The position numbers and the translations under genes were made by a program. 64,000 nucleotides of DNA. Origin: Kiritimatiellia bacterium (GTDB lineage: Bacteria > Verrucomicrobiota > Kiritimatiellia > RFP12 > UBA1067). The notes beneath the pieces were generated by a model. It was not told where the DNA came from. It saw nothing but the letters and a program-made list of their open reading frames with translations, and made no database searches. Positions 35,186-36,686 of the stretch are shown in pieces; positions within the stretch are counted from its first letter, which is position 1, and every line of letters starts with the position of its first letter. Where the stretch lies: assembly GCA_050949565.1 (NCBI GenBank), contig JBMNFY010000017.1:32001-96000 (forward strand), read 5' to 3'.

Positions 35186-35314
35186 CACCGACGGGAAATT
35201 TTTTGCGAGGCTGTCAGGCTGTCAAATGTCACCCCAAAACCAGGACTTCCCCCAAAACCTCTTGCCTTGCCCCCATCCTTTCTCCATCATATGTTCACAA
35301 CAAGGGACACTGCC

Positions 35315-36686
35315 ATGAAGAAACGAAGCCGGAGCAGGATCCTCACTGCGTTGTTCATCGTGTTCGCAACGATGACCAACGCCGCTCCCACTGGGGTGAC
35401 GGTCAACGGCACCGCTCTCGACGATGCCGTCTCGTCCGGTGGCACGGGCTGGACGTATAACGCGCCTACACTCACGCTTTCCGGGGCAGAGCCCCTCACG
35501 CTCTCTGGCGCGAACACGGCGGGTAAGGTGCTCGTCGTCGTCTCGGCGGGCGCGACGAGCGCGGTCACGCTCTCGGATTTGACGCTCCAGACCACCGGCA
35601 GTGGCCAGTGCGTCTTCGAGTTGGAGCAGAATGCCGATATCTCGCTCTTCCTCGCGGGAACGAACACGCTCGCCTCGGGAAGAGACCACGCAGGCCTCGA
35701 AGTTCCCGCGAGCGCGTCGATCTCCATCACCAATGCGCCTAGCGATGCGGCAGGCGCACTGACGGTGACGGGCGGCACTATGGGCGCGGGCATCGGCGGC
35801 GGTTCTAAGGGCACGGGCGGCACGGTCACAATCTCCGGCGGCACGATCGCGGCTACGGGCGGCTTGTACGGCGCGGGCATTGGCGGCGGTTACTTACGTG
35901 CGGGCGGCACTGTGACCGTCCATGGCGGTACGGTCACAGCCACGGGCGGTATGTATGGCGCGGGCATTGGCGGTGGCCGCTCTGGTAACGGTGATGCTGT
36001 GACCATCACCGGCGGCACGGTCTTCGCGCGAGGCAACAACGGCAGTGCGGACATCGGGCCGGGCTTCAGTGGCACGGCTTCCGGCGCGAATATCTTTACC
36101 GGCGGCTCGGTCCGCCTCGCGAACGACAGCATCTCCCCCACGCCCACGGACAACGCTTTCCAAAACGGTGTCGGAACCGCAATGCAAACGCATCTCCCCC
36201 ACGCCCACGGACAACGCGACGCACGTTTGGTGCGTGACGGTAACGAACCTCACACCTAATGCGGCTATCGTCGTTACGGCGCTCGACCCCTACGGCGTCA
36301 GCGACCTCTTTGCCGATGAAAACGGCAAGCTCTACCTCTGGCTGCCGGACGGCGACTACACCTTCGTGGCGGGCAACGCCGGCTACACGGCTACCGTGGA
36401 CGGCGCGGCGACCACGGCGGTCGCCAACGGCCTTGTCGCGCCGCTCTTCGCCACGGACGGCACGGCGCTTGTCTTCGACGGCACGGCGCTCGCCATCAAG
36501 ATCACCAACGCCAAAAGCGGAATATGGTACGCGCTCTACAGGGTGAATACGCTCGGCGAGACCTGGGAACTGCTGCGGAGCGTCCACGCGACGACCGACG
36601 GCGACCTTGCCTTCACGGACATCGACGCGACAGCACCATACCGCTTCTTCAAGGTGAGGGCCAGCATCACTCAGCCCCTGCCATAG
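35315..36686 (+). pseudogene. Secreted GAGIGGG-repeat beta-helix protein, frameshifted by a 61-bp insertion
   Basis: Signal peptide, three 'GAGIGGG' repeats, C-terminal 'YRFFKV' domain. The two ORFs share ISPTPTDNA, and deleting 61 bp fuses them in frame. Confidence 0.85.
36129..36217 (-). CRISPR. Single repeat-spacer-repeat unit (28+33+28 bp) inside a CDS; candidate off-target Cas1-Cas2 integration rather than a canonical array
   Basis: GCATCTCCCCCACGCCCACGGACAACGC is identical at 36129-36156 and 36190-36217 and flanks a unique 33-mer. No cas genes in the window. Confidence 0.6.

Follow-up and report, generated by a model that had tools for sequence, protein, structure and literature searches.

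The window analysed here is a stretch of 64,000 nucleotides (C17:32001-96000) from an assembly of 21 contigs and 4.66 Mb (G000) that belongs to an uncultured Kiritimatiellia-like bacterium, whose NusG is 91-94% identical to that of MAGs labelled as Kiritimatiellia. On the plus strand of the window, the list of open reading frames contains the 5′ part of a broken gene for a beta-helix repeat protein (35267..36259), the probable start of which is the ATG at 35315 (MKKRSRSRIL...). The N-terminus of the encoded protein resembles a signal peptide; the protein also contains beta-helix repeats and scores 28.5 bits with the Pfam family Beta_helix_3 (PF18889; cut-off 27). The 3′ part of the gene is stranded in a shifted frame that is still open (36190..36686, plus strand, inside an ORF of 36045..36686); it is 91% identical to the 3′ part of an ortholog in G002, a genome of the same genus.

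At the break, the repeat families of the window include a 28-nt direct repeat (36129-36156 and 36190-36217) that is 100% identical and has a start-to-start spacing of 61 nt. The bases that border the two copies are unlike each other on both sides (A versus C before, T versus G after), so that the duplication is exactly 28 bp and the insert between the copies exactly 33 bp (36157-36189). Read on the minus strand, the unit consists of a leader-proximal copy, GCGTTGTCCGTGGGCGTGGGGGAGATGC (36190..36217), an insert made up of a G and a 32-nt spacer-like sequence (36157..36189), and an exact leader-distal copy (36129..36156), after which the next base, a T, is the original flank. The insert opens with its G immediately after the leader-proximal copy, and each copy has the heptamer CGTGGGG at its positions 15-21 (36197..36203 and, in the other copy, 36136-36142, minus strand). 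The 28-mer is present twice in the 4.66-Mb assembly, both times at this locus, and the 33-mer once; no template for the insert was detected elsewhere in the assembly, where runs of shared 12-mers extend to 14 nt at most. A first-pass annotation of this DNA, made from the letters alone, had described an exact 28-bp repeat with differing flanks around a unique 33-mer that opens with G on the minus strand, and both the window and the search of the whole assembly bear out that description.

Because 61 is not a multiple of three, the insertion breaks the reading frame. The 5′ ORF reads on past the first copy and across the insert, and its last 33 codons, those downstream of the first copy, are out of frame. 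The +61 frameshift leaves about 297 native residues and a junk tail, and it strands the C-terminal third of the protein. That a single frame had been broken by these 61 bp was also the earlier reading, and it agrees with the presence of ORFs in two frames and with the state of the gene in the relative of the same genus. Among 41 genomes of relatives that were searched, the ortholog was found in G002, where it is a single intact ORF of 453 aa that reads ...LANDSISPAPSNGTARVWCVTVTN... over the insertion site. The alignment to this ortholog falls into two blocks, 86.7% and 91.0% identical, whose subject coordinates overlap by 16 nt; the overlap indicates that the site is present once in G002, with nothing inserted. 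In a multiple alignment, a clean 61-column gap is seen in the G002 ortholog and in two paralogs from the same genome as the broken gene; a third paralog (C1, about 25 kb), aligned in reverse orientation, was left out of consideration.

Strains that carry the insertion

One explanation for such a structure is an artefact of assembly or sequencing, either a chimeric join or a mis-assembled repeat; the assembly is of the metagenome type, with 21 contigs, and the gene belongs to a large family of paralogs (39 matches in G000). The probability of this explanation is close to nil, because the same structure is present in independent records. A search of metagenome contigs with the exact 32-mer retrieved two records (L019 and L020), each of which is the same chromosomal locus with an identical 89 bp, and which are elsewhere distinguishable from G000 (98.6% identical over 6.4 kb for L019, and 99.5% over 14.7 kb for L020). 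In addition, both junctions are spanned without any difference by single contigs from the sequencing runs X10, X15 and X16; these contigs come from Logan, and the assembly may itself have been built from some of the runs, which makes their support only partly independent. When words were sampled from 35950-36400, at least half of them were present in 19 of the 24 listed runs and all of them in 14, and the runs that hold them span 12 studies. The insertion is not an artefact, and the allele is common to several strains of an uncultured Kiritimatiellia-like species of digesters, landfill and sludge.

Support for the junctions and an uninterrupted allele in sister genomes had both been named as checks in the first-pass annotation. 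The junctions are carried by the two other assemblies and the contigs of the three runs. The uninterrupted state is represented by the G002 ortholog and the two paralogs; within the same species, no uninterrupted allele was seen among the examined assemblies and run contigs. Run X17 has no contig that bridges the insertion site. An X17 record that skips the insert was considered as an uninterrupted allele and rejected as a paralog (19 differing positions and 74 other letters). Over the 1550 bp of the gene region, the strains differ from one another at 0-2 positions, and two other strains likewise keep the stranded 3′ frame open; relative to the pace at which pseudogenes decay, the event is therefore recent.

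The resident type I-E system and the target site

The genome encodes a complete type I-E operon at the end of contig C6, in which cas3, cse1, cse2, cas6e, cas7, cas5, cas1e and cas2e were identified with NCBIfam models. The scores of the two adaptation genes are 315.5 bits for cas1e (TIGR03638, cut-off 215.6) and 61.4 bits for cas2e (TIGR01873, cut-off 33.15), which answers the question, raised in the first-pass annotation, of whether type I-E cas1 and cas2 are present. A leader and the first repeat lie directly after the operon on C6, and the array resumes at the start of C10. It has a period of 61 nt in 77/78 cases, equal to the 28 + 33 nt of the insertion, and contains 79 spacers, all distinct. 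The native repeat consists of CTTTTCCCCACGCACGTGGGGATGATCC (28 nt) and a 29th base, after which comes a 32-nt spacer. Base 29 is G in 72 of the 75 non-degenerate repeats and T, T and A in the others, a variation that fits the arrival of the 29th base with the spacer. The G that opens the insert on the minus strand stands at the corresponding place. The same repeat is found in three further genomes of the 41, with 0 mismatches in G003 (same genus), 1 mismatch in G009 and 3 mismatches in G015.

In register with this native repeat, the duplicated 28-mer is identical at 16/28 positions on the minus strand and at 12/28 on the other strand. An identity of at least 16/28 is reached by 4,715 of 9,317,900 position-strands genome-wide (5.1e-4), the native array included. 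Positions 15-21 match throughout: they spell CGTGGGG, the arm of the native palindrome that lies away from the leader (the IR2 side). The heptamer has a genome-wide frequency of 9.4e-5 per position-strand, or 1.9e-4 for either orientation, and it is combined in register with an identity of at least 16/28 at only 43 other position-strands outside the array. The first-pass annotation had aligned the 28-mer to the E. coli repeat with 15/28 matches; our hand count agrees, and the figure is now superseded by the comparison with the genome's own repeat that it had recommended, in which the 16 matching positions include the entire leader-distal half-palindrome.

At the place of the heptamer, the G002 ortholog and the paralogs have CGCGGGG or a variant, and it is therefore possible that a lineage-specific substitution made the perfect half-site. 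The leader-proximal half-palindrome (IR1) keeps three of seven positions (8, 9 and 12) relative to the native CCCCACG, so that the IR1 anchor, which should end 16 nt before the junction, is lacking. Upstream of the site, 13/40 positions agree with the native leader, which is about the level of chance, with only the C at -1 shared. At least 43 other genomic sites are equally or more repeat-like, and none of them has an insertion.

The spacing within the target can be compared with the acquisition rules of E. coli type I-E. According to Goren et al. (2016, PMC5039180), a single 28-bp repeat is enough for acquisition, mutation of either inverted repeat lowers acquisition about 100-fold, and the IR2 motif GCGGG anchors a ruler by which the spacer is placed 8 nt past the end of the motif. 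In the duplicated 28-mer and the native repeat of the present genome alike, GTGGG occupies positions 16-20 and ends 8 nt short of the repeat/spacer junction, a distance equal to the one given for the E. coli IR2 anchor in that study. The register of the insertion thus agrees with an experimentally defined IR2 ruler.

A second CRISPR system in the genome has to be considered as well. Contig C8 carries an array of about 70 repeats, each 32 nt long and spaced at periods of 65-68 nt, and also a second cas1 (347 bits to PF01867). With this additional cas1 and array at hand, and with an assembly that is 92% complete and could be missing further modules, another Cas1-Cas2 might have made the insertion, be it that of the resident C8 system or a type I-E or I-F module of a lost plasmid. 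However, the repeat length and periods of the C8 system do not match the 28-bp duplication and predict a duplication of 32 bp, and the target has the heptamer CGTGGGG of the resident type I-E repeat where the ortholog has CGCGGGG. We consider the involvement of another integrase very unlikely.

No second event of the same kind was found in the genome by direct-repeat scans with periods of 36-120 or by a scan for 28-mers at least 25/28 identical around an unrelated insert with periods of 50-72. Isolated direct-repeat events numbered 39 among the matches listed, and each of those inspected proved to be either a REP-like palindrome present in multiple copies or a protein repeat whose period is divisible by 3. 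The 28-mer scan gave three hits with a period of 61, namely the present site and two within tandem-repeat tracts. A 28/28 match with a period of 62 at C1:35068 was considered as another event and ruled out, being a plain 62-bp tandem duplication. As there is one event only, its statistics are not replicable within the genome.

Origin of the 61 bp

We propose that the 61 bp were added when the bacterium's own type I-E integrase, Cas1e-Cas2e, inserted a single spacer off target, a reading to which we assign a probability of roughly 85%. In this scenario, a 33-nt prespacer, the first G of which would be derived from the last base of the PAM, would have been joined through two staggered attacks 28 bp apart to a target that is coding sequence and resembles a CRISPR repeat by chance, and gap repair would then have produced the 28-bp duplication. 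The integrase would have docked on the CGTGGGG half-palindrome at its native position and made the spacer-side cut 8 nt after GTGGG; the orientation and register of the insertion fit such docking, since the heptamer is identical to the leader-distal inverted repeat of the native array and lies at the native position. The first-pass annotation had interpreted the locus as a natural case of Cas1-Cas2 acting as an insertional mutagen of a secreted-protein gene, and its interpretation is supported by the resident type I-E system with its 61-nt geometry, by the likeness of the target to the native repeat, by the uninterrupted sister alleles and by the other assemblies that carry both junctions.

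Relative to canonical type I-E acquisition in E. coli as described in PMC5039180, the event is alike in its 28-bp duplication, in its 33-nt insert that opens with G and in the position of the IR2 anchor 8 nt away. It is unlike canonical acquisition in that the site has no evident leader, retains IR1 at 3/7 positions and lies in a protein-coding target, and in that the new repeat has no significant hairpin.

The source of the insert was sought in several collections. The exact 32-mer had 0 matches in viral contigs and 0 matches in genome contigs, and among metagenome contigs it gave no protospacer, the two matches being the same locus in the other strains; these large collections were scanned for exact patterns only, so that diverged protospacers would escape. 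In blastn searches with the 33-mer, phages yielded 31 records at the level of chance, none covering at least 80% of the query and the best with E = 4 (the rows listed are 25-nt matches at 88% to T7-like Yersinia and Escherichia phages, E = 4), and plasmids yielded two records (E = 3) and no source. A 61-nt query centred on the spacer, compared with 319 genomes of the order, matched only 35 genomes besides G000, over at most 30 nt and with E values of 0.003-0.1. The native spacers were no more informative about the PAM: inside the genome they have no targets, none of the 79 spacers matching over more than 23 nt elsewhere, and the whole array compared with phages (1 record, 67%) and plasmids (49 records, all with 60-80% identity) found only other type I-E-like arrays. 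Consequently, no PAM can be derived for the resident system. A PAM-flanked protospacer was to have been the decisive test according to the first-pass annotation, and none was found in the genome, viral, phage, plasmid or metagenome collections; for this reason, we infer, rather than observe, that the insert came from foreign DNA and its G from a PAM.

The insert has a further property, namely an unusually high self-complementarity around its centre (10/16 pairs; P = 0.003 for random genomic 32-mers). One of the 79 native spacers reaches 10 centre-symmetric pairs. This quasi-palindromy stays unexplained by the off-target integration model.

It is also conceivable that the geometry of type I-E acquisition is mimicked by coincidence, and that the 61 bp arose through an unrelated insertion-duplication, such as repair or template switching, or as the footprint of some unknown element that makes long target-site duplications. 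The failure to find a protospacer or PAM would fit such an explanation, as would the lack of conservation of IR1 and the leader, and the quasi-palindromic insert could point to a hairpin-derived origin. On the other hand, five coincidences would be needed: a duplication of 28 bp, an insert of 33 nt, the native IR2 heptamer falling in register (1.9e-4), a G at the corresponding end of the insert (0.30, the genomic frequency of G) and a resident system with a period of 61 nt. Moreover, no template for the insert was found in the genome. As for elements, transposons and casposons also leave direct repeats of the target around the inserted DNA, through a staggered attack by a Cas1-like or transposase-like enzyme. 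Their known duplications are about 15 bp or less, and the element itself comprises hundreds to thousands of bases and has its own ends. The present duplication differs in being 28 bp, and the 33-nt insert has no features of an element, nor any copy or relative elsewhere in the genome. We therefore think it quite improbable that the resemblance to type I-E acquisition is accidental, and favour integration by the resident Cas1e-Cas2e.

Fate of the unit and implications

If the 61 bp were integrated by Cas1e-Cas2e, the question arises whether the resulting repeat-spacer-repeat works as an array. The native repeat is predicted to fold with -12.8 kcal/mol (z = -4.08), and 0/200 shuffled sequences fold as well. 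The corresponding values for the new repeat are -7.0 kcal/mol and z = -0.48, with 60/200 shuffles folding equally well or better; by this prediction, the new repeat is without a significant hairpin of the Cas6e type, and the unit is therefore unlikely to be processed by Cas6e. For the unit as a whole, a hairpin of 89 nt is predicted (z = -2.24, 7/200 shuffles as good), which was too weak to interpret. The repeat-spacer-repeat, which is antisense to the gene, is probably not working as CRISPR memory. The first-pass annotation had stated that the insertion seeded a minimal array; this holds for the structure, with its two repeats and one spacer, and does not extend to function, since the new repeat lacks the Cas6e hairpin. 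We use the term minimal array as a description of structure.

The persistence of the allele might be explained in more than one way. The off-target unit is present in all sampled strains of a species with a wide distribution in digesters and landfill, and its two 28-mers are still identical. One scenario is that the birth of a CRISPR-like locus has been caught in the wild and kept, with the event possibly favoured by selection. For example, the loss of a surface beta-helix protein may have removed a phage receptor, in which case protection would have come through mutagenesis and not through memory; alternatively, the antisense repeat-spacer-repeat may be transcribed and used. We regard selection for the event as unlikely, and a neutral pseudogene that hitch-hikes in a nearly clonal population fits the evidence equally well.

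The mechanism itself is known. Nivala, Shipman and Church (2018, Nat Microbiol) reportedly described how the type I-E Cas1-Cas2 of E. coli integrates spacers off target, and their natural candidates are said to have come from Yersinia pestis and Sulfolobus islandicus. Off-target genomic integration was detected in E. coli cells with over-produced Cas1-Cas2 and supplied oligonucleotides (PMC7054753), and for natural cases, in two other species, the E. coli study is summarised as giving only ‘circumstantial evidence’ (bioRxiv 10.1101/148544). The E. coli events, as reported, resemble the present one in being of type I-E, in adding a spacer and a repeat-length duplication at a repeat-like chromosomal site, and in forming a two-repeat ‘neo-CRISPR’ unit; the present case differs in being natural, in having an uncultured Kiritimatiellia-like host, in frameshifting a coding gene and in being common to several strains. 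Off-target integration at repeat-like sites has also been observed for the Cas1-Cas2 of Pyrococcus furiosus (PMC6698737), which concerns another subtype and organism and reactions in vitro on plasmid DNA. A literature search that covered titles, abstract openings and passages returned no description of a natural off-target event of type I-E within a gene; what it returned otherwise was ‘ectopic’ acquisition within arrays and citations of the 2018 study.

What is new is a natural type I-E case that lies in a coding gene and is common to strains of an uncultured Kiritimatiellia-like bacterium. Clean natural examples with a resolved ancestral allele, a resident system and a register consistent with the ruler are rare, and here every element is available for a base-by-base comparison: the resident system with its repeat, the intact allele of the sister genome, and the product. 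The combination of a repeat-length duplication, a spacer-length insert and the resident half-palindrome in register provides a signature with which genomes can be searched for the frequency of such events. The lack of a processing hairpin in the new repeat argues that most array seeds of this kind are dead ends. Finally, we note that the frameshifted gene is an example of a real mutational cost carried by CRISPR adaptation, and that an allele created in this way can spread through a species.

The interrupted gene and its insert

The beta-helix repeat protein gene that is frameshifted by the 61-bp insertion has internal repeats of 87 nt (29 aa) at window 35763-35987, which comprise the direct-repeat families D1 and D2, and it belongs to a large family of paralogs clustered on contig C1 (positions 96000-108000). 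The 32-nt spacer-like part of the insert (window 36157-36188) is a quasi-palindrome around its exact centre, with 10 of 16 possible pairs formed (P = 0.003 relative to random genomic 32-mers). A spacer with 10 central pairs occurs once among the 79 spacers of the native type I-E array. At least eight central pairs are found in 8/79 of them, compared with ~4% of random 32-mers, and as a group the native spacers seem to be biased toward self-complementarity.

Native repeats and a repeat-like hairpin

The final four repeats of the native array (contig C10, 4576-4790) are a degenerate variant (CTTCTCCCCACGCACGTGGGGATACC...) and mark its old, leader-distal end. Outside the array, the best match to the native repeat in the genome (20/28 overall) lies in a lone long hairpin at C19:29115-29165, whose 16-nt core is identical to the repeat palindrome (CCCCACGCACGTGGGG); this most repeat-like non-array site carries no insertion.

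Other repeated sequences in the genome

Two families of REP-like, multi-copy intergenic palindromes, with cores TGGAGGGCGAGTGTCCCCACGAGCCG and GGCACGGGCATCTTGCCCGTG, are present genome-wide (e.g., at C1:113314, C10:41203, C17:919220 and C11:40841), frequently as close-set pairs. Separately, a perfect 62-bp tandem duplication is located in an apparently non-coding stretch at C1:35055-35190.

Additional genes in and beside the type I-E cas operon

Two further ORFs accompany the cas genes on contig C6 (locus L021). One, of 319 aa, is located between cse1 and cse2 (L021 8028-8987) and has HEAT repeats (PF13646, 43.7 bits), with no match in an NCBIfam search; a HEAT-repeat gene within the Cascade gene set is an unusual addition. 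The other, of 267 aa, lies between cas2e and the CRISPR leader (L021 13038-13841), overlaps the end of cas2e as listed, and encodes an RNase_H_2 / DEDD-type exonuclease-like domain (PF13482, 103.8 bits). Cas2-DnaQ fusions occur in other I-E systems; by analogy with these, the 267-aa protein could be an exonuclease dedicated to prespacer trimming.
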